64,000 nucleotides of DNA, taken from Escherichia phage Bf23. The notes under the pieces are model-generated. The model saw only the letters and a list, made by a program, of their open reading frames with translations. It was not told where the DNA came from and made no database searches. Made by a program: the position numbers and the translations under genes. Below are positions 10,211 through 64,000 of this stretch, piece after piece. The stretch lies in the sequence record OR083247.1; one strand, 5' to 3'. Numbering within the stretch: position 1 is the first letter of the stretch; each line of letters opens with the position of its first letter.

Positions 10211-10220
10211 TTTATAAATG

Positions 10221-20378: not shown

Positions 20379-20425
20379 TTGCTAAATTCTCTCGAAATCT
20401 AGTATAATATATACATAAATTCGAG
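20379..20425 (+). promoter_or_regulatory. sigma70 early promoter (second of the tandem pair)
   Basis: TTGCTA (20379-20384), 18-bp spacer, TATAAT (20403-20408), leader ACATAAATTCGAGGAGAAAAC. Confidence 0.6.
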
Positions 20426-20515
20426 GAGAAAACAAAAATTAAATTCTTCGATTATGAAAAGCTATACTTACTAGCTAGAGGAAATTCCGACCTAATTATT
20501 AAGCTCTTTAAAAGA

Positions 20516-20800
20516 ATGCTTACAGAGCCTGATGCTCACCAATTATTGGTCGGTTCCTCATTCATTTTGAATGAATCAACAATAGTTGATAATACAAATA
20601 AATTGTCTAATAGACAACTGGCAGAATATCTAGGAATTTTAAGTCTACGAAATTATGCCGAATACAAGTTTACAAACGATCCTAGCTTGGACATACAATA
20701 TGTTCCAGTATGGATACCACGTTTAGTAATCGACACTAACCCACTAATCGCAATTAACAAATCGAAATTAATCTTTAAAGAGGAAATAAAATATGGCTAA
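20516..20800 (+). CDS. Hypothetical protein (94 aa)
   Basis: ORF between the tandem promoters and the next gene; no motif. Confidence 0.35.
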   Translation: MLTEPDAHQLLVGSSFILNESTIVDNTNKLSNRQLAEYLGILSLRNYAEYKFTNDPSLDIQYVPVWIPRLVIDTNPLIAINKSKLIFKEEIKYG

Positions 20801-21566: not shown

Positions 21567-21572
21567 TAGATA

Positions 21573-21597
21573 GAGGGGCTTCGGCCCCTTTCTTTTT
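21573..21597 (+). terminator. Rho-independent terminator
   Basis: GGGGC-TTCG-GCCCC tetraloop hairpin followed by TTTCTTTTT. Confidence 0.75.
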
Positions 21598-21602
21598 AAC
21601 TT

Positions 21603-24399: not shown

Positions 24400-24402
24400 A
24401 AC

Positions 24403-24885
24403 ATGGCTGTAGATAGTAGAGATAAAGGTAAACGTGGTGAATATCAGGTAAGAGATATTCTACGTGAGCGTACAGGTCTTGAGTGGGAACGTGTTCCTGG
24501 CTCTGGTGCTTTTGGCCAGAGCCACGGACTGAAAGGTGACATCTACCTTCCACCACAAAGTGGACACATTAGTAAATACTGCTTCGAAGTTAAGTGGTAT
24601 AAAGATGATAATATATCAAGTAATTTATTTAATGTTGGTGAATCCACTCTAGAGAAGTGGTGGCAGCAGTGCTCACGTGAAGGTGAGCAGATGAACTCCA
24701 AACCTGCATTAATATTCAAAAAAGACAGAGGACAGTGGTTAATAGCTTTGGATAGCTCAGACCCGATGGTTGACAACTTAATGAGTCGTACCCATATGGT
24801 GTTAAATAAGAAAGGCATGGAAATCGTAATCGGTTTATTTGAGCCGTGGCTACATAATGCATCTGTTGAGGACTTAATTAAATAA
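24403..24885 (+). CDS. PD-(D/E)xK-type putative nuclease (160 aa)
   Basis: ..GDIYL.. followed by FEVKW fits the D..(D/E)xK core. Weak call. Confidence 0.45.
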   Translation: MAVDSRDKGKRGEYQVRDILRERTGLEWERVPGSGAFGQSHGLKGDIYLPPQSGHISKYCFEVKWYKDDNISSNLFNVGESTLEKWWQQCSREGEQMNSKPALIFKKDRGQWLIALDSSDPMVDNLMSRTHMVLNKKGMEIVIGLFEPWLHNASVEDLIK

Positions 24886-25760
24886 TGAGTAAATCCTGGG
24901 GAAAATTTATTGAAGAAGAGGAAGCTGAAATGGCTTCCCGTCGTAACCTAATGATTGTCGATGGAACTAACTTAGGCTTTCGCTTCAAACATAACAACAG
25001 TAAAAAACCATTTGCCTCAAGTTATGTTTCCACTATCCAGTCTCTAGCAAAATCTTATTCTGCTAGAACTACAATAGTTTTAGGGGATAAAGGGAAGTCT
25101 GCATTCCGCTTAGAGCATCTTCCTGAGTATAAGGGGAATCGAGATGAGAAATACTCGCAGCGTACGGAAGAGGAGAAAGCACTAGATGAGCAGTTCTTCG
25201 AGTATTTGAGAGATGCTTTCGAATTATGTGAAACTACATTCCCAACTTTCACTATTCGTGGTGTAGAAGCAGATGATATGGCGGCTTATATTGTTAAACT
25301 CATTGGGCATCTATATGATCATGTTTGGTTAATCTCTACAGACGGTGACTGGGATACTTTACTAACAGATAAAGTTTCTCGTTTTTCTTTCACAACACGT
25401 CGTGAATATCATCTTCGTGATATGTATGAGCATCATAATGTTGACAATGTAGAGCAGTTTATCTCTCTAAAAGCAATTATGGGGGATCTAGGAGATAATA
25501 TTCGTGGTGTTGAAGGTATTGGGGCAAAACGCGGATATAATATTATTCGTGAGTTTGGCAACGTACTGGATATTATTGATCAGCTCCCACTACCTGGAAA
25601 ACAGAAATATATACAGAATTTAAATGCTTCGGAAGAATTGCTTTACCGAAACCTAATTCTGGTTGATTTACCTACCTACTGTGTGGATGCTATTGCTGCT
25701 GTAGGTCAAGACGTATTAGATAAGTTTACAAAAGATATTTTGGAGATTGCAGGACAATGA
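24885..25760 (+). CDS. 5'-3' exonuclease / flap endonuclease (T5 D15-like)
   Basis: N-terminal MIVDGTNLGFRF and H3TH motif GDLGDNIRGVEGIGAKRG; 291 aa as recalled for T5 flap endonuclease. Confidence 0.9.
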   Translation: MSKSWGKFIEEEEAEMASRRNLMIVDGTNLGFRFKHNNSKKPFASSYVSTIQSLAKSYSARTTIVLGDKGKSAFRLEHLPEYKGNRDEKYSQRTEEEKALDEQFFEYLRDAFELCETTFPTFTIRGVEADDMAAYIVKLIGHLYDHVWLISTDGDWDTLLTDKVSRFSFTTRREYHLRDMYEHHNVDNVEQFISLKAIMGDLGDNIRGVEGIGAKRGYNIIREFGNVLDIIDQLPLPGKQKYIQNLNASEELLYRNLILVDLPTYCVDAIAAVGQDVLDKFTKDILEIAGQ

Positions 25761-26203
25761 TTAAAATTAAATTAACTCATCCAGATTGTATGCCTAAGAT
25801 TGGTTCCGAAGATGCCGCAGGTATGGATCTGCGGGCATTCTTTGGTACTAACCCTGCAGCGGATTTACGTGCTATTGCACCAGGCAAATCCCTAATGATT
25901 GACACCGGTGTTGCGGTAGAAATTCCGCGAGGTTGGTTCGGTTTAGTGGTTCCGCGTAGTTCTTTAGGAAAGCGCCATTTGATGATCGCAAACACCGCAG
26001 GAGTGATCGACTCAGACTATCGTGGAACTATTAAGATGAACCTGTTCAACTACGGTTCTGAAATTCAAACTCTGGAGAATTTCGAGAGACTTTGTCAACT
26101 AGTGGTACTACCACATTACTCAACCCATAATTTTAAAATCGTTGACGAACTAGAGGAGACTATTCGTGGAGAAGGTGGATTTGGAAGCTCAGGAAGCAAG
26201 TAA
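25757..26203 (+). CDS. dut: dUTP diphosphatase
   Basis: dUTPase motifs AAGMDLRA, PRSSLGKRH, GVIDSDYRG, RGEGGFGSSG. Confidence 0.85.
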   Translation: MIKIKLTHPDCMPKIGSEDAAGMDLRAFFGTNPAADLRAIAPGKSLMIDTGVAVEIPRGWFGLVVPRSSLGKRHLMIANTAGVIDSDYRGTIKMNLFNYGSEIQTLENFERLCQLVVLPHYSTHNFKIVDELEETIRGEGGFGSSGSK

Positions 26204-51234: not shown

Positions 51235-53022
51235 TTAGGTAAGGCGTTGAATTGTTACTCTTAATCTAGGTAAGAAGACGGCGGCGGATTCATTTGCATG
51301 TATAACCACACCTAGCTCAGCATTACCATTACCCAGATTTTTAATAGTATAAATAAACCCACTTCTACGAAATGTTAAATCATCTGGTCGGCTAGCCCAC
51401 CGTTGTGTATAACTATAGGAAGCTGTAGTATGAAATGGCACCAAATGGTTAGGAGGTAGGGTTAATATTTGATGAAATATCCCATCACCTCCTGTATAAC
51501 TTTGCTGCCTTCTCCCCTGCACTTGCCATGCAGTGCCACCATATGTTCGTATAGGACCTCCTGCTGTATTAAGATTTCCAGCAACCACCTCAGTAGTTAG
51601 GATTACTGTAGAGTTTGCATTTGGTAGCCCAAGACTTACTGTGGATAAGGCTACATACTTATTACCTGTACCCGGGTAAGAAGGGTTTATATCATCGCCT
51701 ATGTAAGTACTGGCTACGTTATTTGGTAGTAATCGTAAAGGCACTGACGAAGGTCCCCAAACAACCCCGTGCTCATTACCTATAGTATTATTGTTGGAAT
51801 TAACGTACCATTGTTTACCGGCGGAGAACTTGTAAATACTTATCTGAGACTTAGAACCCCCATAATTTACGGGAGACCATAGAGACCCCTTATTAGACCC
51901 CACAATTTCGCATCTTGCTGTAGTATCTCCAAATACTCCAGTATAAGCAACGTTATTTCCAATATATTCCATATCAGGCCTATACCCTAAGTTACCAAAA
52001 GCATTCTGATTAATAAATTTGTAGCTAGTATTTGGAAGACTAACACCTTTTATAGTAAAGTTAGAGGGGCTTATACGAATATCGGATCCAGTAAATGGAT
52101 TACTAGCAACGCTCATACCACCATTAGAGTACCTAAGATTCAGCACATACCAGATAACTTTGGTTGGAGTAATATTATAACTATCCTGCACATACTGCTT
52201 CTTTGCTGCTTGTGATGCTAAGTTAGATGTTGAGCCTCTACATACATAAACCTTATCTGGGTAGGTTGAAGAGTTGTATAGTACACTAACATTACTTGGC
52301 GTAGTACCTTTTTTACCAGCGTATCCACGTATATTGGAGTTACAAACATAAAACCAAGTATGCCCCCTTTTCCCCGCCCCTATAGGAGCCTGCCAGTTAG
52401 GGTGCCAGAAGTCAACATTACCACTATTTATCGATACTTTAGATGCTCCGGCTGGAAATCCTGCTAAAGTCCACGCTCTGCCCATAGCTTCAGCAGCGTA
52501 CGCCCCTCCTGGTCCGTATAAGTTAAACCCAGAAGCCTGTGATATAGTACCACCAGTACCTTGTCTAGCTATTGACTCCTCATGGCCTAGACTAGAGCTA
52601 TACGTATAGGTACCATGTGCTAAACTATTACCAGATGCAAAAGCTGATGTAAGACCTACTTCAGCACCAGCCCTACCAATAGGGGGGTCTTCAAAAAATG
52701 CAAGAAATTGTCCAACTTGGGATTGAGTACCATTCAAAAAACCACGATGAGTACCATTAATTTCAACAGCGGTTAGTATAACTCTACCAGGATCATTGCT
52801 CTTTAGATTAGCTATTACAGAAGGCATTTGGCATACAAAGAACCCATTACCCGCGTTACTTAACGCACTCTCATATGTACTCTCGACTAGAACAAATGGC
52901 ATATCAGAATGAAATATAGTATTGGCGTTAGGAGTTTTGTGAGCATTAATATCCCCACCATTCACCTTGTTTAGTGATAATACAGTTTTACCATCACTAT
53001 ATTTTCCAGCGAAAAAACCCAT
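51235..53022 (-). CDS. Receptor-binding tail protein, T5 pb5-like (595 aa)
   Basis: First gene of the late strand, divergent from llp; N-terminus MGFFAGK..TIFHSDM resembles my recollection of pb5. Receptor specificity cannot be read from sequence. Confidence 0.6.
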
Positions 53023-53107: not shown

Positions 53108-53374
53108 ATGAAAAAGTTTGTGATTGCACTAGTTGCCGCAGTTATGTTATCTGGTTGTGCACCTGCTCCCAAACCATTTTGTACGGGATTTGTAAAATCT
53201 TTTGGTGGTGCGGGAGAGGAACATTACGGTCTCAAGGTTCAGAAAGTTCGTATTAAGGGAGATCGCTTTCCAGTAGTACAGCTCCGTACTAAGTTTGGGT
53301 GGTGGGATCTCAGTCAGTTTGACCTTAAATACGGTGATTGTAAATTTAAACTAGAGCAATCTAATTACCTGTAA
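53108..53374 (+). CDS. llp: Lipoprotein, Llp-like superinfection-exclusion (receptor-blocking) protein
   Basis: Signal peptide with lipobox MLSGCAP; small size; divergent from the pb5-like gene. Confidence 0.7.
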   Translation: MKKFVIALVAAVMLSGCAPAPKPFCTGFVKSFGGAGEEHYGLKVQKVRIKGDRFPVVQLRTKFGWWDLSQFDLKYGDCKFKLEQSNYL

Positions 53375-53786: not shown

Positions 53787-53977
53787 TAGAAGTAGTAGCT
53801 ACACTAATAGTAATACTAGTCTGGGCAACTTTCATTGTTTCTTATAACGCGTATGTTCGCCTAAAAACTCTAGAAGCTCAAGTAAAACAACAACAATTTG
53901 CGCTAGAAAAATTAGTAGAACTGCAACGTTGTGATAGTACCCGCATTCTACAAATTGAGAGGGAATTAGATGTTTAG
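53783..53977 (+). CDS. Small membrane protein with coiled-coil tail (64 aa)
   Basis: ATGA overlap with the upstream ORF; N-terminal helix ATLIVILVWATFIV, then ..LKTLEAQVKQQQFALEKLVEL.. Confidence 0.45.
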   Translation: MIEVVATLIVILVWATFIVSYNAYVRLKTLEAQVKQQQFALEKLVELQRCDSTRILQIERELDV

Positions 53978-54215
53978 TATTATAGTTGCTTTTATTATCG
54001 GGATAATCGCGGGAGTTTTCGGAATGACTGCGGCTATTAACAAGCATCGTAAGTATACTGCGGAAGTATCGCGGGAGATTGCGGAGAGGGAGCGGAAGTT
54101 TGATGAGAAACGTGCGGAGTTTGAGCGGGAGTGGTCGGATGGATCTCGGGCGTCGCGGAAGAGATTTCGTGAGTTTAGACCTGAACATCGGTTTGATGAC
54201 CCTTCTATGCGCTAA
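53970..54215 (+). CDS. Small membrane protein with highly charged E/R/K-rich C-terminal helix (81 aa)
   Basis: 8-nt overlap with the upstream ORF; N-terminal helix IIVAFIIGIIAGVFGMTAAI, tail REIAERERKFDEKRAEFEREW; GAG/CGG-rich codons. Confidence 0.45.
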   Translation: MFSIIVAFIIGIIAGVFGMTAAINKHRKYTAEVSREIAERERKFDEKRAEFEREWSDGSRASRKRFREFRPEHRFDDPSMR

Positions 54216-54379
54216 TTAACTTTTTGCCAAATTTCATAAGATTACACATGAGGATGTGCTCACTGCCTCCGGCGAAAATACTTAGTCTGCTAACCGCCAC
54301 ACCCGTTATTATTACCATGCTAACTGTTTCACCCTGCAACCATTTTAATTGCAAGGTGAAACAATTTCAACCTTAATTA

Positions 54380-55114
54380 TTATGCGACTTTTAGTTTTTC
54401 AATATATTGTTGCGGGCTGCAACTATATTCTGCGCGTTCTTCCTCGGTCATACTTTCCCAACATAATTGCAAGCGATCGGCTAGGAACTGATAATCATTA
54501 TCATCGTCGAGCGATTCATCGATAAAGGTTTCACCTATCAATGTCACGCCGATTGATAGAATATCATTAATAGCTTGTGCGTCCAGCGTTTTAAACCCGT
54601 ATGATGCCGCCGCCGATAGCACGCCCTTATGATCATCAATCATCGTGAAATCAGCGTTTGGATATAGCTGTTTAAATAACTCAAAGTAATGGCTTTTATA
54701 TATAGCATCTTTACTGTGGTATATTTCGCTAACTTTATCAGCCTCAAAATATTTGTGTAGTGTGTCGCGGGAAAATACACGGATATTACTATCCCCACGC
54801 CCTCGCAGTCCTTGTTTGCGTAGGTAATAATAATCTGACTTACTCATCAGTCGAGCGGTACAAATAATGTTTAACGTGTTAACGTCATTCATACATTGGC
54901 GCATATATGTAACAAGCGGCAATAGTGTGTCCTGCATTATTAAATCATGTTTACATGCTTCATTCTTATATTTATTTAAATCTAAATTACCATCGTTATC
55001 AAAGCAAGGCGCTACGCGATGGAATGAGTTAACGATAGTGCCGTCCAGATCCCAGATCATGACGCGGGAAATATGCGGGAAATTACGGGTAATATTCGTT
55101 TTAACTTGATTCAT
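54380..55114 (-). CDS. dmp: 5'-deoxyribonucleotidase, HAD family, T5 Dmp-like (244 aa)
   Basis: HAD motif I in VMIWDLDGTIVNS; size and position among pre-early-type genes. Confidence 0.65.
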   Translation of the reverse strand: MNQVKTNITRNFPHISRVMIWDLDGTIVNSFHRVAPCFDNDGNLDLNKYKNEACKHDLIMQDTLLPLVTYMRQCMNDVNTLNIICTARLMSKSDYYYLRKQGLRGRGDSNIRVFSRDTLHKYFEADKVSEIYHSKDAIYKSHYFELFKQLYPNADFTMIDDHKGVLSAAASYGFKTLDAQAINDILSIGVTLIGETFIDESLDDDNDYQFLADRLQLCWESMTEEERAEYSCSPQQYIEKLKVA

Positions 55115-55188
55115 TTTGTTACGTTCTCCATTAAAGGGATTAAATTAAATTAATCCAGCCCACTGGATGGGCTGGGCTATTCCAGCTA

Positions 55189-55584
55189 TTAAAGACCATA
55201 AGCCAACGCATCAGCGATGACGGTAATATCTTCACCCGATACATCGGAACGGATGCCCGCGCATGTAAATACTTTTGCGCTCATTAGCTGATCATCAAGG
55301 CAAGCGGGACAAGGGGCAACTACTGCGAAAGCTAAACCTGATTTTACGGCATCGATGATAATCGTTTCTTGTTTCACCGTGTCAATATAAACGCCTTTCG
55401 CCTTGATGCGGCTGGATAACTTGCCCGTGGTATAGGCGAAAGTAGTGATCTGTAGCGCCTCGTTAAACTCGATTAAATCATCGACAACGTGACCGGCCTC
55501 AACGTGATACCGCTCACCATTAGAATAAACTAGGACGATAGAAGACTGAGCGCGATCGAATGGAATACGGTTAGAAATAGCCAT
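55189..55584 (-). CDS. Hypothetical protein (131 aa)
   Basis: ORF in the - strand pre-early chain; GC-richer codons. Confidence 0.5.
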   Translation of the reverse strand: MAISNRIPFDRAQSSIVLVYSNGERYHVEAGHVVDDLIEFNEALQITTFAYTTGKLSSRIKAKGVYIDTVKQETIIIDAVKSGLAFAVVAPCPACLDDQLMSAKVFTCAGIRSDVSGEDITVIADALAYGL

Positions 55585-55653
55585 GTTTATAACTCCAATT
55601 AATTTAATAAACTTTTATAGCGGCGGTATATTTCAACCGCCAACCTGATTTAT

Positions 55654-57318
55654 TTACGCAAAAAATTTACCATTCTTAAAGTCAATCAAGGTGCGCTGAC
55701 CGTTTGCATAGGTAATAACATGCGTTTGTGTCCAGCTTGACGCGCCAACGTTGTAACCCATGTCCAGACTACCAGACACGCCAGCGGTGTATACGCCGCC
55801 GTAAATACTGGCGGTATGAGTGTGCCCCGTGTTCAGTTTACCCAATTTCTTAAATTGCTTCGGATTGCCACGGCTCCCGTTAATGCCATTGTGACCGTGT
55901 ACGCCGCATTCAATGCCTGCAATCTTGAAAGATTGGTCAGTCGTTAGGAAAATGGCGTTAAACTCGCAACCTGCAACCTTGCGCAACGCATAATCTAGCA
56001 CGTTGAAAGTATCGTCTTTTTCTGCAATAGCTCCATAAATCGCGGCATTAAGGCGGTGATATAGTTCGGCGTTGGCTGGATCGTCTTTGATGTTAGCATT
56101 ACGATCATCCAGCCAACGGGATAGCGCCAGATCGTGGTTTGATTCTACGATGATCGTTTGAGAAAAATCGCGCTCCATTGATTCCAACACGCGACCGGTA
56201 TCGATAAGATCATCCAGAACTTTATCACGTCCGGCGGCGTATTGTTTTGCTAGGAATACACCCGAAGCGCGATTGTGATGGTTGCGTGATGTAAAATCAT
56301 GCACGTCATGGACAAATTGATATTTTGGTTTAAGAATATCAAGCAAGCTATTTTCGCCAGCCCATGACGCAGCGGCGCAATCATCATCCAGTTTTTCAGC
56401 GTGGACGTCGCCATATTGTAAACCTAAAACGTGCCCCGTTGTTTCATAGCATCCGGCGGGAGTAGCGCAAACATTCAGATCGTAAAAAACGCCGCTTTCG
56501 TCCATAGTTTCAAGCTGGCGCACAAAAAACTCACCGTCCTCGTCGAACTCGACAACAAGCGCACCGAAATTATGCAACGCTTCCGCTTTCTGTCCTGCTT
56601 TCTGCTGGATGTAGTTTTTTAGCGTTGCCGTGCCGGTTGAATACATACGGCGCACTACTTCACCTTTTAAAGCTGGGACGCTCTCGGCGGTGATTTTAGC
56701 CGCTCCAATTGCCAGACCTTCAAGGTTGAGCGCGGTTGCAGTTTCAGCAAATCCAGAAAGCGGATAATCTGCGGTAGGTAAAACGTTAATTTCAGCCATG
56801 AAAGCAAAGCGGCGATTATTCAAAAACACGTTTTTATTGCAGATATATTTGTCAAATGCGGAATCATATTTGATTCCTTCGGCGCCCTCGCCATTTTGAA
56901 AACCGTTTTTGTTATAAATAAACTTGCTAACCAGCAAATCAGCGCCGATATATTTAGCAAATTGCTCCAGTGAGGCTAAAAAGTTTTTATGCGGGAAAGT
57001 ATTATTCTGAATCGACGTAATAATAAAGCGTTTACCCTGCTTTACTTCCCAGCTTTCAACCGTGCTAGAAACAATCCCCGCCGCTTCTGGGCGCTCATCG
57101 TTTTTAATGGCTTTTGCTACTTTCGCCGCTTTCGGTTTAGCTGGTTTATTTGCTTCCAACCAATCACAAATCGCGGTCGAGTGTTTTGTAGTATCATAGA
57201 CCGCCTTTGATATATCGTCGCAGACTTCCAGTTTAGTGGCGCGCAGACGTTTACCATAGAAATTAAAGTCAGCGGCCATTTTCAGGATAACGGTTTGTTT
57301 TTCTGCGGAAATAATCAT
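55654..57318 (-). CDS. A1: Pre-early protein A1-like (554 aa), putative metallophosphoesterase-type nuclease
   Basis: Size close to that recalled for T5 A1; metallophosphatase-like His clusters (..GVHGHNGINGSRG.., ..GHTHTASIYGG..); neighbours dmp and A2-like genes. Confidence 0.65.
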   Translation of the reverse strand: MIISAEKQTVILKMAADFNFYGKRLRATKLEVCDDISKAVYDTTKHSTAICDWLEANKPAKPKAAKVAKAIKNDERPEAAGIVSSTVESWEVKQGKRFIITSIQNNTFPHKNFLASLEQFAKYIGADLLVSKFIYNKNGFQNGEGAEGIKYDSAFDKYICNKNVFLNNRRFAFMAEINVLPTADYPLSGFAETATALNLEGLAIGAAKITAESVPALKGEVVRRMYSTGTATLKNYIQQKAGQKAEALHNFGALVVEFDEDGEFFVRQLETMDESGVFYDLNVCATPAGCYETTGHVLGLQYGDVHAEKLDDDCAAASWAGENSLLDILKPKYQFVHDVHDFTSRNHHNRASGVFLAKQYAAGRDKVLDDLIDTGRVLESMERDFSQTIIVESNHDLALSRWLDDRNANIKDDPANAELYHRLNAAIYGAIAEKDDTFNVLDYALRKVAGCEFNAIFLTTDQSFKIAGIECGVHGHNGINGSRGNPKQFKKLGKLNTGHTHTASIYGGVYTAGVSGSLDMGYNVGASSWTQTHVITYANGQRTLIDFKNGKFFA

Positions 57319-57414
57319 AGTAATAAAGCTCCATTAAAGGGATTAAAAACGTTTGTTATTGGCAAATATTGCCAAATATAACGCCTTGAATAATAGGCGT
57401 TATAATTTGCAACA

Positions 57415-57612
57415 TTAATTTAAAGGCATAAGGCTAGAACTAACACCACAAGCAACGGCGGCAATAAAACAAATCAGACCTAAACGCTTTGCCAATTTAG
57501 ACTTACGCTTAAAATAATATGAATCTAAATCATTTTGAAAGTATGCAAATAATAATGAGGCCGCCATAATAAATAAGCCTAGAATTAACGATTCAGTGGG
57601 GTAAAAGATCAT
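57415..57612 (-). CDS. Small membrane protein (65 aa; start moved to ATG 57612 with RBS GGAG)
   Basis: Two hydrophobic helices; the upstream in-frame extension to 57660 would read through a perfect 20-bp palindrome. Confidence 0.4.
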   Translation of the reverse strand: MIFYPTESLILGLFIMAASLLFAYFQNDLDSYYFKRKSKLAKRLGLICFIAAVACGVSSSLMPLN

Positions 57613-57669
57613 TTTAATAACTCCAGTCAAAGGGAAATTATAGTGGGGAATATTCCCCACTAATTAAAT

Positions 57670-58086
57670 TTATTCACCTGCGGCTTGTTTTACTTCATCG
57701 GCAACGCCTAACAGTTGCGCCACGGCGTCCAGCGTTTCTAACTTTGCGCTTTCCAGACTTGCCAAATCGTCGGCGTCTTTGATAATGCCGGAATCAATAG
57801 CATGTTTAGCGATAACGCGTACATAATGAGCTTTGCGAATTGAACTACCGCCGCCAACTTTGCGCGGCTTATCGCTTTTCTGATACGCTTTCGCGCTGGT
57901 CAATTTTGAGCGAACAGACACGGGAGAAGCCGCGCCAACTGTTTTAGCAATCTCTTTCAGGCCGTCGCTGTTGGCGAACTCCAAGCCGTTTTCGTTGATC
58001 AACTGTTGATACATGGTAACAGCCTGTTGGGTGTTTTCTTCATTCCAAGCAAATTTTGCGGATTTTTCGGTTTTAACGTTAGCCAT
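57670..58086 (-). CDS. A2: Pre-early protein A2-like, putative DNA-binding protein (138 aa)
   Basis: Size and position relative to the A1-like gene; Lys/Ala-rich. Confidence 0.55.
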   Translation of the reverse strand: MANVKTEKSAKFAWNEENTQQAVTMYQQLINENGLEFANSDGLKEIAKTVGAASPVSVRSKLTSAKAYQKSDKPRKVGGGSSIRKAHYVRVIAKHAIDSGIIKDADDLASLESAKLETLDAVAQLLGVADEVKQAAGE

Positions 58087-58184
58087 GATTATAACTCCTA
58101 TTGAATTAATTTAAGGGATAAGATTAACATAATGTTAATCGTTATATACCCCAAACTACTGGGGTATATAAAGTTAACACTAAG

Positions 58185-58436
58185 TTATAAAACAGCTTCC
58201 CATTTTTCGTTGCGTTGAACAACCTTTACAACGTCGCCGGATTTAACGCGAACGCTAAAAACGGTTTTGCCGTTGTTACTACGTTCATTTTCAGCGTATA
58301 CCGCGTCGATTGTATCAAACGGCATAAGCGCCACACCTTTAATGCGTTCGGTTTTTCCGGTTAATTCGTCCGTTTTAGTAACGAAAGGAATAAAAACGGA
58401 TTGACCAATTTTAGGCGCGGTAATAACGTTTTTCAT
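58185..58436 (-). CDS. Hypothetical protein (83 aa)
   Basis: ORF with RBS AGGAG; leader contains a 10-bp-stem hairpin. Confidence 0.45.
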   Translation of the reverse strand: MKNVITAPKIGQSVFIPFVTKTDELTGKTERIKGVALMPFDTIDAVYAENERSNNGKTVFSVRVKSGDVVKVVQRNEKWEAVL

Positions 58437-58663
58437 AGTATAAACTCCTAGTTATTTGGGGATTGTTCCGCATTACCTGCTAGAAAGTAGCAGGTAATAA
58501 GAAAAAATCCGCTCGCCAATATAATCAATTTAAAGAACTCCACTCAGGCCGCTATATCCCAGTTAGGGGGCGGGACACATTATGGTAAGTGCCGACCGTC
58601 AAATTGTATCAAGTTATCGCTCTTATCGAACTGGGTACATCTTAAAGCCTATCGGCTAGGGTG

Positions 58664-58867
58664 TCAAACAATTTTTTGCAGTTTTTTATGATTTTCTTTC
58701 AGGTCAATCATAATATTTCGCCAGATCATTTCCAGACCTTGCTGGCGGCCTTTCTTGTACTGCGTGAATCTATATCTTACGGATTGTTGAGCTACTGTCA
58801 ACAATTTTTTAGTAGTAACATCTAATTTTTTAGCTGGTTTACCAGTGATCAAAAGCGTTTGTTTCAT
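58664..58867 (-). CDS. Small basic protein (67 aa) bracketed by 24-bp inverted repeats
   Basis: Lys/Arg/Gln-rich ORF with RBS AAGGA; inverted repeats at 58633-58654 and 58904-58927. Confidence 0.4.
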   Translation of the reverse strand: MKQTLLITGKPAKKLDVTTKKLLTVAQQSVRYRFTQYKKGRQQGLEMIWRNIMIDLKENHKKLQKIV

Positions 58868-59320
58868 ATCTGCGATTCCTTATATAATTGATAAGTTTAC
58901 CGCCGATAGACTTTAAGATGTACCCAATTTTTAAAGAGCGTGGCGGTAAACTTCCCGCCGTGTAGTTCGTCATTGCCGCCCTACGAGATAAATAATAGGG
59001 GATTCCCAAAAATGGCGCAACCTTATTTTTGTAAAGAAACGTAAAGAAAGCAAATACTCGCAAGGTGTCCGGCGATTGCCCAAGTTTAAAGGAAACGGGC
59101 GCACGAATACCATAAAACCCAGCAGGTTGGCAAGTAATTTTTTCATTTATATTTGCCTTACCCTACTTGACAAAATCTAAAAAGCTCGTGGTAGCGATAA
59201 ACGAGGGTAGGCAATGCAATGGCCTGGCTAAAACTTTCATCGCGTTCTAGGGCGTTTTAGGCGCATTCTAGCCTTGTTGATAACTTATCCCCAGAAGCAA
59301 AAATGAAATTTTCCTAGTTA

Positions 59321-59351
59321 TCCACTTGACTTTTATTTTCCAGTGGATAAC
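59321..59351. promoter_or_regulatory. Inverted pair of DnaA-box-like sequences
   Basis: AGTTATCCACT..AGTGGATAACT around a 14-bp AT-rich centre. Confidence 0.5.
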
Positions 59352-59494
59352 TACTTATTTTATGAAATAAATTAATTGACTTTTATTTGTTAGTATGCAT
59401 CGGAAAGATAGCAGACTAATAATTGCTAGGATGATAATCATGCTGGTGGATTGTAACGGCTTAAACTATCAGCGGACTATTAATCACGGAAAAT

Positions 59495-59545
59495 CTCGTT
59501 AGCTAACTAACTATTTCATGATGTATAATATACATATAAATTAAT
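59495..59545 (+). promoter_or_regulatory. Early-family sigma70 promoter facing the + strand cassette
   Basis: TATAAT (59524-59529) with the family leader ATATAAATTAATGAGAAATAA; -35 is weak (AGCTAA). Confidence 0.5.
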
Positions 59546-59633
59546 GAGAAATAATAATTATAATAAATAATAACTACAGTAAATAATAACTATAAGAAAC
59601 TATCGGCCTAAGTGAGAACCACTATCATTTAAG

Positions 59634-59741
59634 TTATCCACAAGTTTATTAACAGCACAAAATGATTTGACACGATAGGCGGCGATATAAAGACTTATCC
59701 ACAGACTTATCCACAGGTTATCCTACTGTATAAATATACAG
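59634..59741. promoter_or_regulatory. Cluster of three consensus DnaA boxes plus a LexA-box-like palindrome
   Basis: TTATCCACA at 59634-59642, 59695-59703 and 59707-59715; CTGTATAAATATACAG (CTGT-N8-ACAG) at 59726-59741. Confidence 0.6.
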
Positions 59742-60007
59742 GGTAAATGGGTAGTGTTAACAACTGCAATCAATTTTAAGCGGCCTAAAACGCTTTCTAA
59801 CGAGCTAAATGCGGTGGGGTAATATTAAAGTAAAGCCTTCACCCGTCGCCCTGGTGGCTTCGCCGTGTTTTGCTCTTTACTATACCGCTGCGCGGTTAAC
59901 ATAAAAATAAGCGTTAGGCAAGGAAAATAAAAAGGTAAAATAATATTTGCCCCTAGAAAGAAAATACCTTTATCATTCACTCACCGATTAACGAGGGAGG
60001 CCAACAA

Positions 60008-61000
60008 ATGAGGCTATATAAACCAGATAACGCAACCGTCTTAAAAGGTGCGCTGCGTAACCTGCTGGACGGTAGCAGAACAACCAGCATTAAACACTTT
60101 GTTAACAAGGCCGAAGATATTCACCAAAACTTTTTTGATGATTTCGATGCCTATGATATGAGTAGTTTTTTACAACTGTATAAGCAAGGGGCAACGCTTG
60201 TTTTGTATAATCGAGATAATCACCTGCTTACTAGTAGGGGGCCGGATACCGATTTCATAATTGTAAAAGGTAGCACAGTAAAAGCCTATGACACTGGAGC
60301 GGGCTTAGAAGTTTTTTCAATAGAAAACTATGAAGCCAACCCCAATGATCTTTATGACGTTGAAAACTTTCTTGATTCATTTTGGCGTTATTTATCCGTT
60401 GGCTGGAATCGGTCAATTGGTGACGGGTATCGTCTGGCGGCTGTAATGACCTTTGATGATGATGGCAATTTTTTGCTACCGTCGGAAGTATACCCATACG
60501 TATATGATGGGGATATAGAAAGCGCGGGCTTTTCTTTCTGGAAAGAGGGGAATCAGCCTATTGACAACACGGAAAAACATGCTGTAAATTCTAACACTCA
60601 AAGCGTTAATACTCAAATCACTGAAAACAAAGGAAAAAACACCATGACCAAGATCGCTAATATTGTTGCCGCTAATAAATCCGCTGTTGTAAACGCTGCA
60701 AAACTGGAAGCGGGTAAAATTGCACTGACTCAAATTACGAAAGTAGCGGCTAAAAAAGCGCCGTTCATGATCAAAGGCTATATTGATACGCCGATTGGTC
60801 GAGTAGTGATTGCCAACCTGCTTAGCGTAGCGGTTGACCAGTACGCCCCGAGTAACCAGAAAGCGAAAGCGGTAGCAGGGGCAGCTATGGAAGCGGCAAT
60901 GCTAGAAATGGTGCAAAGTTTTAACATCGCTGAGATGATCGATGAAATGGTAAAAGGTATCGATATTTCTACTTTCACCGTTAACAACGAAAGCGAGTAA
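60008..61000 (+). CDS. Hypothetical protein (330 aa)
   Basis: ORF with RBS GAGGGAGG; Ala/Lys-rich C-terminal half; no motif. Confidence 0.5.
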   Translation: MRLYKPDNATVLKGALRNLLDGSRTTSIKHFVNKAEDIHQNFFDDFDAYDMSSFLQLYKQGATLVLYNRDNHLLTSRGPDTDFIIVKGSTVKAYDTGAGLEVFSIENYEANPNDLYDVENFLDSFWRYLSVGWNRSIGDGYRLAAVMTFDDDGNFLLPSEVYPYVYDGDIESAGFSFWKEGNQPIDNTEKHAVNSNTQSVNTQITENKGKNTMTKIANIVAANKSAVVNAAKLEAGKIALTQITKVAAKKAPFMIKGYIDTPIGRVVIANLLSVAVDQYAPSNQKAKAVAGAAMEAAMLEMVQSFNIAEMIDEMVKGIDISTFTVNNESE

Positions 61001-61065
61001 TAATATTAAGCGGGGATTGTTACCCCGCTTTAATGTTCCCTTGTTAATTAATAGGAGGCTAATTA

Positions 61066-61560
61066 ATGGCTGAAGAAAAATATGGCTTCTCACTGGGAGA
61101 AGTGAGCACGGCAAAACATGATATGATCATTTTGGTCGATTGCCATACTGGCTATTGCGGAGAAGGTTGGACGGAGGAACATTTTGTTCCAGCTGGCTGT
61201 AATCTGGACGCTTTCGCTCAGGAAATGGCTATTGATAATGCTTCTCGTTTTGGTAGCGATGGTTACGAAGACGAAGAAACTGGCGAATGGTATGAAAATG
61301 AAAACGTATATGCAAGCCTTTATCATTATCAGCTAAGTAAATCCGGCACATATGTAAACGGCGGCGATCCTATTAATTCCGTCATGAAATTAATTATTAA
61401 ATATGGCGGAGTAGAGATAGTTGGTAACAAAGCGGTAATATACGCAAACCGATTAAAACAGCTTGTTTATATTCCTGATAGTACCCGATGGGATGAATAT
61501 GCTGTTTTGCATGACGAATTGAAACGATGTTTCAATATTGAAACCTTACAAGTAGTCTAA
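61066..61560 (+). CDS. Hypothetical acidic protein (164 aa)
   Basis: ORF with RBS AGGAGG; no motif. Confidence 0.5.
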   Translation: MAEEKYGFSLGEVSTAKHDMIILVDCHTGYCGEGWTEEHFVPAGCNLDAFAQEMAIDNASRFGSDGYEDEETGEWYENENVYASLYHYQLSKSGTYVNGGDPINSVMKLIIKYGGVEIVGNKAVIYANRLKQLVYIPDSTRWDEYAVLHDELKRCFNIETLQVV

Positions 61561-61664
61561 TGTAAAGTTTTGTAAAGGTCGCCTTTTATGGTGGCCTTTT
61601 TTGTTATAATGCTTTTACACCAAAACGGTGGATTGAAAATTTCCCAAAAATTTGGAGGCTTAAA

Positions 61665-61895
61665 ATGGTTGCATATTCTTCTTCTGACGCTCTTTTCACT
61701 GGAAAAGGCTGGGTATCAAATCGCTGGATCATTCATGAAATGGTGCAAGAATACGGCATTGCTAAAACTTACACTACCATCCAGGCGCTTTATGATAATG
61801 ATCAAATTGATCAGCAAACGGCTGGTTTTTTGCTGGATACCCTGAAAGCGGAGCACTGTACTAAAAAACAAGCCGCCAAAATTGTTTTAATGTAA
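61665..61895 (+). CDS. Hypothetical protein (76 aa)
   Basis: ORF with RBS GGAGG upstream. Confidence 0.4.
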   Translation: MVAYSSSDALFTGKGWVSNRWIIHEMVQEYGIAKTYTTIQALYDNDQIDQQTAGFLLDTLKAEHCTKKQAAKIVLM

Positions 61896-61941
61896 TTAAT
61901 AACGGGGCGTTACTTTCGCCCCGCTAACTAGGAGAATGAAA

Positions 61942-62091
61942 ATGGTTATTTTTCGAGCTATTCTAGCAGGTATCTTGGGCGCTATTTTATCCCTTTTTGC
62001 TATAGCTTTTGGCGTTCACGCGGTTACTATTGGTGCTGGCATTGCTGTATTTTCTTATCTGCTGGGCTGCATGACTAGTAAAGGAGAATAA
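61942..62091 (+). CDS. Small hydrophobic membrane peptide (49 aa; not in the ORF track)
   Basis: RBS AGGAGAA then ATG; MVIFRAILAGILGAILSLFAIAFGVHAVTIGAGIAVFSYLLGCM.. Confidence 0.35.
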   Translation: MVIFRAILAGILGAILSLFAIAFGVHAVTIGAGIAVFSYLLGCMTSKGE

Positions 62092-62093
62092 AA

Positions 62094-62306
62094 ATGATCC
62101 GCAACGTTTCTCTTGCACGTTCGAAAGGCTTTAAGCTGGTGGATGTTAACACGTTCGAGCGGGAAGATTGTAAAATCGAATATGTAGCACGTAATAAAAA
62201 TGCCTTTCGTGTTACCGAGAAAAAATTCGATAAGCGGGGCAACGTGATAGCTGAAACGGTTAAACATTTTGCCACCTTTTACGCTGCATTTCGTGGGGTA
62301 CTATGA
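62094..62306 (+). CDS. Hypothetical basic protein (70 aa)
   Basis: ORF with RBS AGGAGAA upstream. Confidence 0.4.
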   Translation: MIRNVSLARSKGFKLVDVNTFEREDCKIEYVARNKNAFRVTEKKFDKRGNVIAETVKHFATFYAAFRGVL

Positions 62307-62427
62307 AAAGCGTTATTGTTGTTATCCTTGCAATGGTTGGAGGTTTTACCGCCACCTTATTTAAGAATGACCCCCTTTTACTGGGGGTTTTTATGCTTTT
62401 ATCTGGATACCTGATTGGGAGGTTATA
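62303..62427 (+). CDS. Small membrane peptide (41 aa; not in the ORF track)
   Basis: ATGA overlap with the upstream ORF; MKSVIVVILAMVGGFTATLF..LLGVFMLLSGYLIG. Confidence 0.3.
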
Positions 62428-62429
62428 AA

Positions 62430-62774
62430 ATGGTTATTTATGAAGGCAACCGCTTTGTTACTAATTGCCGTCCGGCATTACTAGCAAACTACTTAAATCA
62501 GCTTTCCCCAGCTTATAAGGGCGTCATTAATATTTATGAAGGCAAGGCGCATTATAAAATTAATGCGGTCGTTGCCCGTGAACTAGCGTTTCAATTTTTG
62601 ACCTTTGCATCTTGTGATATTCAGGTCATGGGTGAGGCGTTAATTGCAGAAAATGAAGATGATTTTATTAATATTTTTCGCAAAGTATGCACCGAGCGCC
62701 TGATAATGAAAGGCGCATATATTCAATCCACTGCGGATAGTATTGAAACAGCGTTTCGAAAGGTGGCACAATGA
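62430..62774 (+). CDS. Hypothetical protein (114 aa; start at ATG 62430 after RBS GGGAGG)
   Basis: ORF 62415-62774 in the track, trimmed to the ATG with a proper RBS. Confidence 0.45.
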   Translation: MVIYEGNRFVTNCRPALLANYLNQLSPAYKGVINIYEGKAHYKINAVVARELAFQFLTFASCDIQVMGEALIAENEDDFINIFRKVCTERLIMKGAYIQSTADSIETAFRKVAQ

Positions 62775-62874
62775 AATTATATATTTTCGCGGGTAATGTT
62801 GAGGCTGCAAATGATTCCGCTGGTGGCGATAACGTTCGCCACTATTGGCAAAAATATATTTACTAGGCGTTATT

Positions 62875-63069
62875 ATGAGCAATAAAATTATTATAACTAA
62901 AACTACCACAATGGTTGACGTTTTTTATGTGCCCGATACGCTGGAAAACCGGCGAGCGGTCGAGCGGGGCGAATATGATAGCGTTATTTATGATGCCGAT
63001 GGTTACTACCGGCATTTGGTCGATTCCTATGGGGAGGAGGAGAAGATCACGCATCAATTACCGGACTGA
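62875..63069 (+). CDS. Hypothetical protein (64 aa from ATG 62875)
   Basis: ORF 62845-63069 in the track begins at a TTG; the internal ATG is preferred. Confidence 0.4.
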   Translation: MSNKIIITKTTTMVDVFYVPDTLENRRAVERGEYDSVIYDADGYYRHLVDSYGEEEKITHQLPD

Positions 63070-63210
63070 TAACAAGCGGGGAGCAGATCCCCGTTTTTCA
63101 CGCCTCCAGTTAAATACCCCTTTGTTTTAGTATCCCCACCAAAATTAAACGCGTTAGAATGCGATTCAGGACGTTTTAGGCGTATATTAGAATTATTCAC
63201 TACGTAGGAA

Positions 63211-63320
63211 TACTGTATAAATATACAGTAGAATAACTTGGGGATAAGTCTGTGGATAACGCCTCAAAATGGCTGGGATTCTGTCAAGTCAAATCGTGCT
63301 GTTAATAAGTCTGTGGATAA
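63211..63320. promoter_or_regulatory. LexA-box-like palindrome plus two consensus DnaA boxes, in inverted orientation relative to 59634-59741
   Basis: TACTGTATAAATATACAGTA at 63211-63230; TGTGGATAA (reverse complement of TTATCCACA) at 63251-63259 and 63312-63320. Confidence 0.6.
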
Positions 63321-63351
63321 CTTAAATAACAGTGTTTCTCACTTCCGTTTT

Positions 63352-63507
63352 TAAATGCGAATCATTATCATTCGCATTTCACTATCTAACCGATAATCAT
63401 TCCACTTTTTAAATGAGATTGATTCTCATTTCACTTTCTAAATGCGAATTATTATCATTCTCATTCCGCTTTTTAAATGAGAATGATTCTTATTATCATT
63501 CTCATTT
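63352..63507. repeat. Cluster of four related palindromic repeats (AAATG(C/A)GAAT..ATTC(G/T)CATTT units)
   Basis: Four units, each an inverted repeat with 10-13-bp arms around a short AT spacer, at about 63352-63380, 63411-63432, 63440-63468 and 63474-63507. Confidence 0.7.
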
Positions 63508-63531
63508 AGCGCAGGGCAATTGCCCTGCGCT
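63508..63531. repeat. Perfect 24-bp GC-rich palindrome containing two GCGC tetramers
   Basis: AGCGCAGGGCAATTGCCCTGCGCT, followed by TTTTG on the + strand. Confidence 0.7.
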
Positions 63532-63533
63532 TT

Positions 63534-63756
63534 TGTGCAAATCCGACATTTGCTCCAAGGGTTACGTGCTGGCGTATATGTGCAAATCCGACAATTTTTG
63601 GTAGTGTGCAAATCCGACCCGAAAAATTTTTATAGTGTGCGAATCCGACAATGAATTTTCCTAAAAACTCCAGCAATCACGAACTGCGTTCGAATCCTGT
63701 GGGATATGTGCAAATCCGACACGGTTTTTCTAGGGTTAAGATGTGCGAATCCGACA
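63534..63756 (+). repeat. Iteron-like array: six direct copies of TGTGC(A/G)AATCCGAC(A) with irregular AT-rich spacers
   Basis: Copies at 63534, 63579, 63605, 63636, 63707 and 63742, plus one degenerate copy near 63688; spacers 11-56 bp, usually ending in a T-run. Confidence 0.75.
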
Positions 63757-64000
63757 AGATTTTTGTGACTTCGATGGGAGGGTGTGTGATTGTATAGGTT
63801 TGAGGGGAAGATGAGAGAGCGAGAAAAATTTGAGGGGATAGAAGGATGTGGGCGCAGGATTGGTGCGGAGCACCTGATTTGCGGGGATTTTGGGGAAGAG
63901 TTGAGATAATTTGGGAAGATTTGAGATAGGTGCAGAAAAAGTAAAATTTTATTAGCAAAATGGGGCAAAATAGCTTGACAAGTGAAAATTCTTGTGGATC

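Follow-up and report, generated by a model that had tools for sequence, protein, structure and literature searches.

Early and late genes of phage T4 reportedly differ in codon usage, an observation attributed to Cowe and Sharp in 1991. Further examples come from a comparison of 14 phages, in which codon-usage classes were tied to expression time (Mioduser et al., 2017; PMC5683454), and from GC3 and CAI genome landscapes of phages, where T5 tops the phage Table 2 (CAI controlling for GC3, p = 1.4e-31; GC3, p = 1.7e-19) (Lucks et al., 2008; PMC2266997). No specific description of codon usage in the T5 pre-early region was found in the literature searched. The locus described here resembles these temporal classes in that synonymous usage varies by expression time within one genome. 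It departs from them in that the earliest class is set apart chiefly by CpG, GpC and a change from T to C at third codon positions, with tAI and CAI nearly unchanged, and in that the shifted domain takes in non-coding DNA and matches a terminal repeat. Genomic islands acquired by horizontal transfer are likewise contiguous, sharp-edged and atypical in GC3 and dinucleotides (delta* ~0.2), whereas the present domain is syntenic, conserved family-wide and compositionally stationary, and carries essential functions at the core of the infection strategy.

The window analysed, a stretch of 64,000 nucleotides from Escherichia phage Bf23 (OR083247.1), belongs as a whole to a T5-like phage (Tequintavirus) and shares ~90% identity with phages Baret and mar004NP2. 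Its 54-64 kb section is the T5-type pre-early module of first-step-transfer, terminal-repeat DNA, with dmp, A1, A2 and small ORFs. The gene identities proposed in an earlier note on this sequence proved correct, with dmp, A1, A2 and the + strand cassette matching T5 left-terminal-repeat genes at 64-100% protein identity (at least 79% for all except one gene), and positions 54257-64000 share 88-90% nucleotide identity with the terminal-repeat regions of T5-like phages. Positions 54257..64000 would represent the long terminal repeat in one copy, its left end being placed by T5 homology and its right end (T5 position 10,219) being expected at ~64,130, slightly past the window edge. This ~10-kb DNA is the first to enter the cell and the untouched host expresses it before the other 92% of phage DNA arrives. 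As in T5 (NC_005859, positions 1-10219), the genes follow the order dmp, T5.002, A1, T5.005, A2, T5.007 and T5.008, then a divergent promoter gap and T5.011 to T5.015, and the module adjoins pb5 and llp. Unlike T5, the window holds only one repeat copy with its right end outside, lacks T5.003 and apparently the hegG homing endonuclease, and carries an additional 164-aa ORF at 61066-61560. No tRNA genes were detected within the 64-kb window, and T5 carries its own at 28-41 kb, within second-step DNA.

The region had been described as visibly GC-richer from about 54 kb onward, with frequent GCG, CCG and CGC codons. A clear step in bulk GC is not seen, with 41.1% at 54380-63069 against 39.2% at 1-54379, within the top 4.5% of equal-size windows (mean 39.3%, sd 0.9), but the shift at the codon and dinucleotide levels lies far beyond chance. 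The GC-richest 2-kb stretch in the window (55.15-57.15 kb, 45.6%) covers the 131-aa ORF and A1; elsewhere in the region, 57.3-60.0 kb has 38.4% and the + strand cassette 40.9%, and bulk GC outliers are limited to A1, the 131-aa ORF and A2, with dmp not among them. The three codons are indeed frequent, at 106/2137 (4.96%) in pre-early genes against 1.70% in early and 1.56% in late genes (Fisher p = 3e-19). Mean GC3 falls from 0.39-0.40 in pre-early genes through 0.31-0.33 in early ones to 0.26 in late ones (Mann-Whitney p = 0.002-0.003 for pre-early versus early, ~1e-5 versus late), four-fold-site GC is ~0.46 (0.45-0.475) in the module versus 0.19-0.25 in the second-step genome, and the synonymous-codon chi-square between pre-early genes and the rest reaches 520 on 41 df (p ~1e-84). 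This is not a plain GC rise: AAG, GAG, CAG, CTC, TTC and AGG are lower or flat, and the bulk of the change is from T to C at the third position following G or C at position 2, where one tRNA reads both codons.

The maximum-likelihood GC3 change point is sharp and falls at 53,991-53,994, at the minimum of the GC3 landscape. This point lies ~400 nt to the left of 54,380, and the domain extends past 63,069 to the window end. The adjacent pb5 and llp genes have GC3 z-scores, computed per gene given the amino acids, of ~0. The first gene with the signature is the T5.162 homologue (53970..54215, + strand), an 81-aa membrane protein with GC3 0.475 and CpG observed/expected (o/e) 1.56-1.8; in T5 the corresponding values are 0.50 and 1.73 for T5.162 and 0.22 and 0.82 for its neighbour T5.161, and T5.162 sits 42 nt beyond the terminal repeat despite the signature. 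The - strand cassette comprises dmp (deoxynucleoside-5'-monophosphatase; 54380..55114; 95.9% amino acid identity to T5), with unshifted bulk GC (39.3%), GC3 0.383 (z = 2.4) and CpG o/e 1.62; the 131-aa T5.002 homologue (55189..55584; 84% identity), with GC 46.5% and GC3 0.446 (z = 4.4); and A1 (55654..57318; 95.7%), the DNA transfer protein involved in host-DNA degradation, which has the strongest shift of all genes (GC 45.6%; GC3 0.447, z = 7.9; 127 CpG, o/e 1.47). The T5.005 homologue, a small membrane protein (57415..57612; 100%), is unshifted in GC3 (0.281, z = -0.5), yet its GpC o/e is 2.19. A2 (57670..58086; 93.5%), a DNA-binding protein required for second-step transfer, has GC 48.1% and GC3 0.474 (z = 4.9), the T5.007 homologue (DUF7177; 58185..58436; Pfam PF23801, E = 6e-41) a CpG o/e of 2.53, and the small T5.008 homologue (58664..58867; 94%) no shift (GC3 z = 0.0). 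A non-coding gap with promoter-like sites on both strands (58868..60007) separates this cassette from the divergent + strand one, which opens with the 330-aa T5.011 homologue (DUF7566; 60008..61000; Pfam PF24450, E = 1e-112; GC3 0.407, z = 4.0). The remainder of the + strand cassette (61066..63069; 64-100% identical to the T5 left repeat by tblastn) consists of the 164-aa ORF without T5 orthologue, the homologues of T5.012 (61665-61895), T5.013 (61936-62091), T5.014 (62094-62306) and T5.015 (62430-62774), and a 64-aa ORF (62875-63069; GC3 z = 4.1), with GC3 z from -0.3 to 4.1 and GpC o/e of 1.15-2.28 in each gene. At 63131..64000 begins a large non-coding region, placed relative to T5 9140-10149, whose T5 counterpart holds the injection stop signal.

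The sharpest step is found in dinucleotides. CpG o/e is 1.2-1.6 versus 0.6-0.85 (1.1-1.6 in all 1.5-kb windows from 53.25 kb on, 0.57-0.94 across 45-54 kb), and the repeat region differs from the remainder of the window by a Karlin delta* of 198, with a maximum of 79 among 10-kb control chunks. CpG odds across codon boundaries are 1.30 in the module versus 0.75, and within it they are nearly equal at the three codon-position pairs (1.56, 1.38 and 1.30). GpC o/e is raised in each repeat gene, those unshifted in GC3 included. The non-coding DNA of the module contains 126 CpG against 93 expected at the rest-of-phage ratio (p = 6e-4): the gap at 58868..60007 is AT-rich (GC 37.1%) with CpG not depleted (48, o/e 1.22; GpC o/e 1.50), 63131..64000 has 36 CpG (o/e 1.08), and in the untranscribed T5 iss region CpG o/e is 1.01 inside the repeat versus 0.67 immediately outside.

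A matching compositional domain was found in T5, Pectobacterium My1, Vibrio phi3 and Proteus phage 1, representing four Demerecviridae lineages; the shift is real, sharp and common to the phage family. The T5 repeat resembles the window in GC3 (0.385 versus 0.28-0.31 outside), CpG o/e (1.31 versus 0.75) and GCGC frequency (5.4 versus 0.8-1.0 per kb). A separate evolutionary origin, as suggested in the earlier note, would mean that the pre-early genes were taken from a host-like, GC-richer genome and retain its composition, and the module does lie nearer to E. coli than the rest of the phage, in RSCU (r 0.65 versus 0.27 and 0.03) as in delta* (126 versus 188-210). This account is nevertheless largely refuted and very improbable: the shifted module is common to lineages with different hosts (E. 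coli, Pectobacterium, Vibrio and Proteus), A1 represents a phage gene family with homologues in 1134 phage records, CTAG avoidance, an E. coli hallmark (z = -5.3), does not extend to the repeat (z = +0.9 to +1.5), CCWGG (Dcm) sites are ~4x rarer in the module than elsewhere in the phage, and TpA is not host-like. Nor is there amelioration. Polarised four-fold-site substitutions number 89 strong-to-weak and 94 weak-to-strong, CpG in the module shows 43 gains and 50 losses, and composition is stationary because the substitutions are balanced and imply an equilibrium GC4 of 0.47, in agreement with the 0.45-0.475 observed. The module is at its own stable equilibrium, maintained and not a decaying or foreign-origin relic.

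The best explanation for the host-like pre-early composition, with a probability of roughly 0.45, is a different selective regime for genes working in an unmodified host. GC3 is ordered pre-early > early > late, and codon usage shifts towards average E. coli genes (R2 0.65): delta-RSCU (pre-early minus rest) correlates at 0.81 with the corresponding E. coli difference (average minus rest), a partial r of 0.69 (p = 1e-9) remains once GC3 is controlled for, with GC3 itself falling to -0.09, and the E. coli term holds after CpG and GpC controls (t = 6.3-8.8). Host-rare codons read by T5 tRNAs, which are encoded in second-step DNA, account for 13.3% of their codon families in pre-early, 19.7% in early and 24.5% in late genes (Fisher p = 2e-5 versus early, 2e-13 versus late), and no comparable class difference is seen for host-rare codons that lack a phage tRNA. 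The conservation of a stationary domain in four lineages also favours this reading, and the four-fold divergence of the module (0.24-0.26), ~2x that of the D-gene early set (0.105-0.167) and above that of most capsid, portal and terminase genes, is consistent with second-step genes being more tightly constrained at synonymous sites. The different expression regime put forward earlier fits the direction of the shift, but translation before phage tRNAs become available contributes little to it. Host-only tAI comes to 0.302 in pre-early, 0.291 in early (p = 0.47) and 0.271 in late genes (p = 0.008), the modelled gain from added phage tRNAs shows no difference by gene class, and CAI against ribosomal-protein and EF genes does not separate pre-early from early genes, with weak or no difference across classes. 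The shift moreover leads away from the codon usage of highly expressed host genes (coefficient -0.375, t = -5.2), its main component exchanges codons read by one tRNA, codon boundaries and non-coding DNA (the iss region included) share the signature, synonymous sites inside the module show no sign of purifying selection, and T5.162 is shifted although it lies outside the T5 repeat and is hence not expected to be pre-early.

Because tRNA-adaptation indices barely differ, a DNA-level cause stays a serious rival. It is possible, if rather unlikely, that a neutral process confined to the region is responsible, the mutation, repair or recombination balance of the repeat differing from that of the rest, and added CpG and GpC steps would then give rise to host-like codon usage as a by-product. 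Host enzymes might repair lesions in first-step DNA until pre-early proteins disable them, or the cause might lie in repeat-to-repeat recombination in each cycle with heteroduplex repair, or in extra copying of the repeat at packaging. Besides the nearly flat translation indices, such a process would fit the similar CpG odds at the three codon-position pairs, the GpC excess in genes without a GC3 shift, the signal that extends to codon boundaries and non-coding DNA, and a per-site weak-to-strong substitution rate 1.5-2x higher in the module with synonymous divergence not reduced. It would also fit the position of the domain end, ~200-1000 nt from the repeat end in the phages with an annotated repeat, to which this comparison was limited (T5 ~10.0/10.22 kb, phi3 ~8/7.77, My1 ~13-14/12.85), and the coverage of any gene held in the repeat, My1-specific ones included. 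Plain GC bias is excluded, however, with NAG codons dropping and NTC codons flat, and an E. coli repair footprint is missing, CTAG not being avoided and CCWGG being rarer in the repeat. Furthermore, four-fold-site GC rises by ~0.25 and non-coding GC by just 0.03 to 0.06, all phage DNA is copied by T5 polymerase, T5.162 is shifted outside the repeat whereas hegG inside the T5 repeat has GC3 0.234, and a mechanism of this kind is undocumented. Selection on the DNA itself is more doubtful still. In one version, second-step DNA would have been purged of short CpG/GpC-rich targets preferred by a nuclease, possibly in A1-dependent host-DNA degradation, with first-step DNA exempt, otherwise protected, or meant for shut-off along with the host. 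In all four phage lineages GCGC occurs at 0.57-0.97 per kb in second-step DNA and 3.7-5.4 in the repeats, with 5.4-7.1 in E. coli, rest-of-genome signatures are alike across hosts (delta* 38-91), the escape of unmodified T5 DNA from A1 has still to be explained, and A1 is needed to shut off host and pre-early but not early expression. Yet GCGC is neither over- nor under-represented in any compartment after di- and trinucleotide correction (z = -0.9 to -2.5), a search for an extended repeated motif found none, the right-hand repeat, identical in sequence, must survive for replication and packaging, and A1 has no known sequence preference.

Under a difference in selective regime, the two compartments would be selected differently owing to their time and place of action. 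The pull may act on first-step genes towards host-like usage or on second-step genes away from a shared neutral state, and the data fit either. The second-step genome is CpG-poor and abounds in codons ending in T or A, among them host-rare ones that the phage's ~23 tRNAs read, and its genes may be co-adapted with these tRNAs and with a cell stripped of DNA and mRNA. First-step DNA would be the sole phage DNA facing an intact host, with genes that would rely on host transcription and translation alone, in competition with host messages.

The DNA between 54,000 and 63,500 of the window has matches in 547 phage records, the top ones belonging to Tequintavirus (Escherichia phages Baret and mar004NP2 and several Salmonella phages) at 88–90% identity. 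Genes have been named from the annotation of these relatives and of T5 (NC_005859), which places early replication genes (D5, primase, polymerase, D10–D15 and dut) at 1–26.4 kb on the + strand and late structural genes, from ltf to terminase, at 26.5–53.0 kb on the - strand. Directly upstream of the module lie homologues of the receptor-binding protein pb5 (51235–53022) and of llp/Cor (53108–53374), so that it adjoins the late-region junction in the manner of a T5-type module. T5 homology then identifies dmp (54380–55114), a T5.002 homologue (55189–55584), A1 (55654–57318), a T5.005 homologue between A1 and A2, A2 itself (57670–58086) and, after it, homologues of T5.007 and T5.008, followed by 1.1 kb of non-coding DNA and, from 60008 to 63069, a cassette on the + strand. 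No match to dmp, A1 or A2 was found in Pfam; they were named by homology to the annotated T5 proteins. Comparison of each module gene with T5 by tblastn gave 64–100% identity, concordant with the annotation of relatives, and the syntenic arrangement of dmp, A1 and A2 on one strand with a divergent cassette of small ORFs is that of the pre-early module of the Demerecviridae. When compared to T5, the non-coding DNA separating the divergent cassettes (58868–60007) is some 440 nt shorter and apparently without the HNH homing endonuclease hegG, T5.003 is missing from the window, and the T5 repeat offers no orthologue of a 164-aa ORF found at 61066–61560.

In T5, the corresponding module is a terminal repeat of 10.2 kb and makes up the first-step-transfer DNA, the first to enter the cell, and two-step injection, with pre-early expression before the remaining genome enters, is an experimental property of T5 and BF23. 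From T5, My1 and phi3 we infer that the genome of the present phage carries, at each of its ends, a long direct terminal repeat, which by homology would start near 54,257 and end near 64,130, just beyond the window. The window contains one copy of the repeat, and several relatives have been deposited with the repeat collapsed. No tRNA genes occur within the window; in T5, 23–25 of them are located at 28–41 kb, in the second-step DNA.

Synonymous codon usage differs between the temporal gene classes when amino acids are controlled for, with a summed synonymous chi-square of 520 on 41 df. Averaged over 14 pre-early, 31 early and 21 late genes, GC at third codon positions (GC3) is 0.39–0.40, 0.31–0.33 and 0.26, respectively (Mann-Whitney p = 0.002–0.003 for pre-early against early and p ~1e-5 against late), and GC at four-fold sites (GC4), taken from three-way alignments, is 0.445–0.475 in the module, 0.234–0.257 in early genes and 0.185–0.199 in late genes. 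An earlier note on this DNA had remarked on frequent GCG, CCG and CGC codons, and these indeed constitute 4.96% of pre-early codons vs 1.70% and 1.56% elsewhere (Fisher p = 3e-19). Given the amino acids encoded, GC3 z-scores reach 7.9 for A1, 4.9 for A2, 2.4 for dmp and 4.4, 4.0 and 4.1 for three other module genes, with values near 0 for pb5 and llp and at most 2 for all late genes. Within 1–53000, early and late genes also differ in GC3 (0.31–0.33 vs 0.26, p ~1e-4), and from early to late the RSCU of AGA rises from 0.96 to 1.91 and that of ATA from 0.37 to 0.86; the pattern is therefore a gradient from pre-early through early to late and not a single step.

The same DNA had been described as GC-richer from about 54 kb onward, a description which is right at the codon level and holds poorly for bulk composition. 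The flagged region (54380–63069) has 41.1% GC vs 39.2% in the rest, placing it in the top 4.5% among windows of its size, and the only GC outliers within the module are a 131-aa ORF together with A1, which at 45.6% form the most GC-rich 2-kb stretch of the window, and A2 (48.1%); dmp is unshifted at 39.3%, and the DNA at 57.3–60 kb has 38.4%. A second GC peak at 11.8–13.5 kb is formed by the homologue of the D5 DNA-binding protein (12230–12997, + strand, 48% GC), where the excess resides at codon positions 1 and 2 (GC1 0.66, GC2 0.44, GC3 0.34) and is thus amino-acid-driven, unlike that of A1. Bulk GC is consequently misleading and was rejected as a measure: its profiles are nearly blind to an effect that GC at four-fold sites and the observed/expected (o/e) ratio of CpG display sharply.

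By maximum likelihood the change point is located at 53,991–53,994, where the GC3 landscape also reaches its minimum; this upholds the step reported at about 54 kb and shows its start to have been set some 400 nt too far to the right. The change point falls inside the homologue of T5.162 (53970–54215, + strand; 111245–111490 in T5), a small Arg-rich membrane protein. T5.162 and its homologue carry the full pre-early signature (GC3 0.475–0.50, CpG o/e 1.6–1.8), the neighbouring T5.161 lacks it (GC3 0.19–0.22), and in T5 the gene stands outside the terminal repeat, at a distance of 42 nt; possibly the boundary of the repeat has shifted, or the domain may not be set by the repeat. An ORF of 118 aa on the opposite strand (53832–54188, -), with 10% GCG/CCG/CGC codons, was at first taken as a gene and then dropped, as it lies antisense to the homologues of T5.161 and T5.162, goes unannotated in relatives and so is probably spurious.

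The shift extends to dinucleotides. In 1.5-kb windows, CpG o/e is 0.57–0.94 at 45–54 kb and 1.09–1.59 in all windows from 53.25 kb onward, and the fifteen highest values of the 64 kb all belong to the module. In coding DNA the ratio is 1.42 in the module vs 0.80 and 0.66 elsewhere, with CpG odds raised at all three codon-position pairs, the codon boundary included (1.30 vs 0.75), and the non-coding DNA of the module holds 126 CpG where 93 would be expected at the ratio found elsewhere (p = 6e-4). GpC o/e is likewise elevated (1.53 vs 1.06–1.16), with AG/CT, GA/TC and AC/GT steps depleted. Module and rest are separated by a Karlin delta* of 0.198, when 10-kb control chunks average 0.056 with a maximum of 0.079. 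GCGC, the annotated nick consensus of T5, is present at 4.7–4.9 per kb in the module vs 0.6 per kb elsewhere, an 8-fold difference; it was rejected as a specific motif (maximal-order Markov z = -0.9 to -2.5), its density being fully accounted for by di- and trinucleotide content, and the flanks of its sites have no consensus. A repeated binding site was also rejected, given that the enriched 6-mers AGCGGG, GCGGGA and AGGGCG are scattered in unrelated contexts, a few of them in terminator stems.

The compositional domain is a family trait, detected in four phages of the Demerecviridae. GC3 and CpG o/e in the domain and in the rest are 0.385 vs 0.28–0.31 and 1.31 vs 0.75 in T5, 0.421 vs 0.333 (p = 4e-7) and 1.04 vs 0.59 in Pectobacterium phage My1, 0.478 vs 0.394 and 1.00 vs 0.67 in Vibrio phage phi3, and 0.351 vs 0.301 and 1.03 vs 0.66 in Proteus phage 1, for which no repeat is annotated. 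The domain ends at about 10.0 kb in T5 and about 8 kb in phi3, where the repeats end at 10,219 and 7,769, and in My1 it spans the entire 12.85-kb repeat, including genes absent from T5. Signatures of the remaining genome are alike across the four phages (delta* 0.04–0.09), the modules differing more. The smallest GC3 shift is that of the phage with an AT-rich host, four phages being too few to establish host tracking.

A separate evolutionary origin, proposed in the earlier note, finds no support in these data. Among 724 four-fold sites polarised with the window, mar004NP2 and T5, changes in the module are balanced, with 89 strong-to-weak and 94 weak-to-strong, and the implied equilibrium GC4 of 0.47 equals the observed value, which indicates that module composition is stationary; CpG shows 43 gains and 50 losses, and the per-site ratio of strong-to-weak to weak-to-strong rates is 1.1, vs about 2.1 elsewhere. 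Presence in four lineages is unlike the patchy distribution of a horizontal island, no drift towards recipient composition was seen in the polarised changes, and A1 is a widespread phage gene (1134 records). Stationarity, family-wide distribution and the prevalence of A1 together rule out a recent foreign origin, and foreign origin in general can be considered essentially excluded. Four-fold divergence in the module, at 0.24–0.26, is about twice that of the early D-gene set and above that of most capsid, portal and terminase genes. Between the window and T5 it is 0.26 in the module (54380–63069), 0.105 in replication genes (18659–26203) and 0.01–0.2 in most capsid, portal and tail-assembly genes (30700–53022), reflecting either faster evolution of the module or another recombination history.

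As to its direction, the shift points towards average host genes. The RSCU difference between pre-early genes and the rest correlates with that between average E. coli K-12 genes and the rest at r = 0.81, and at a partial r of 0.69 (p = 1e-9) with GC3 controlled, GC3 itself dropping to -0.09; the E. coli term persists when CpG and GpC are controlled, and the coefficient for ribosomal-protein and EF usage is negative. RSCU correlations with average host genes are 0.65 for pre-early, 0.27 for early and 0.03 for late genes, and the ten dinucleotide odds correlate with those of E. coli at 0.76 in the module and -0.19 in the rest. The gain is chiefly from T to C at third positions, only where position 2 is G or C, and AAG, GAG, CAG, CTC, TTC and AGG are lower or flat in pre-early genes. 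The partial correlation and the fall of NAG codons therefore speak against a simple GC3 increase of the kind seen in biased gene conversion, and it was rejected. The resemblance is only partial, with TpA and CTAG not avoided and CCWGG rarer in the module.

The earlier note had also suggested translation before phage tRNAs are available, an explanation which is supported only weakly. In its favour, host-rare codons read by T5 tRNAs (AGA, ATA, CTA, GGA, ACA, TCA and CCA) account for 13.3% of their codon families in pre-early genes, 19.7% in early and 24.5% in late genes, and host-rare codons without a phage tRNA do not differ between the classes. Against it, host tAI, calculated from the number of E. 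coli genes per tRNA and weights for wobble pairing, is 0.302 in pre-early, 0.291 in early (p = 0.47) and 0.271 in late genes (p = 0.008), the modelled addition of phage tRNAs benefits all classes about equally, and pre-early and early genes are not told apart by CAI against ribosomal genes. With differences small or non-significant, tAI and CAI were rejected as explanations.

Restriction sites are likewise unevenly distributed. The module (53970–64000) has zero sites for EcoRI, EcoRV, HindIII, BamHI, PstI and EcoKI, the rest of the window having 1–8 of each; Dcm sites (CCWGG) occur at roughly a quarter of the density of the rest (0.30 vs 1.19 per kb), with 2 in the T5 repeat (1–10219) vs 88 in the rest of T5, and CAGCAG at roughly a third. 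In the module, CCGG, CGCG and GGCC are below Markov expectation (z = -2.3 to -3.4). This scarcity fits the known restriction exposure of first-step DNA, recent work having indicated that only this part of T5 DNA is exposed to restriction. In Proteus phage 1 (MT679223 52700–102298), GGCC is absent from about 47 kb where a Markov model expects about 55 (z = -4.7 and -5.7), a HaeIII-type site being strikingly avoided here.

For a step of this size and position, at both codon and dinucleotide level, in a conserved and stationary module of known identity, the cause to which we give the most weight, with a rough probability of 0.45, is a difference in selective regime. First-step DNA would have to function in, and be exposed to, an intact host, and second-step DNA would function once the host has been shut off, using tRNAs of the phage itself. 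The chief competing explanation is a neutral process tied to the repeat through repair or recombination; the non-coding and codon-boundary CpG signal and the near coincidence of domain ends with repeat ends speak for it, and we regard it as rather unlikely. Selection on the DNA itself, such as would clear second-step DNA of nuclease targets, is unsupported at the motif level and appears improbable. More improbable still is that the CpG/GpC dichotomy serves as a composition-based way to tell DNA apart during T5 infection. Host and first-step DNA have a CpG/GpC-replete signature in common, from which the second-step genome, its GCGC density purged about ten-fold in every Demerecviridae lineage examined, departs, and A1-dependent degradation and shut-off could then hit host and pre-early templates and spare the unmodified early and late genome. 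If this reading is true, it would solve the long-standing puzzle of how T5 keeps its DNA from the destruction that it brings on the host's.

Within phages, temporal gene classes are known to differ in codon usage (PMC5683454), and T5 tops the list of phages with non-random CAI and GC3 (Lucks et al., 2008, Table 2; PMC2266997); the composition of the pre-early region is not mentioned in the T5 literature examined. The partition of this known module is real, strong and conserved; its kind is ordinary, its details are under-described. It bears on the co-evolution of phage tRNAs and codons, as genes expressed before and after tRNA arrival can be compared here. T5 is a classic model phage, for which recent work considers the evasion of A1 by unmodified DNA to remain unclear, and the partition may be linked to this open question. 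A 2026 preprint has demonstrated the feasibility of recoding and genome engineering. A stable, family-wide 10-kb module unlike the remaining genome offers a concrete handle, testable by recoding, on the escape from A1 and on the exposure of first-step DNA alone to host defences.
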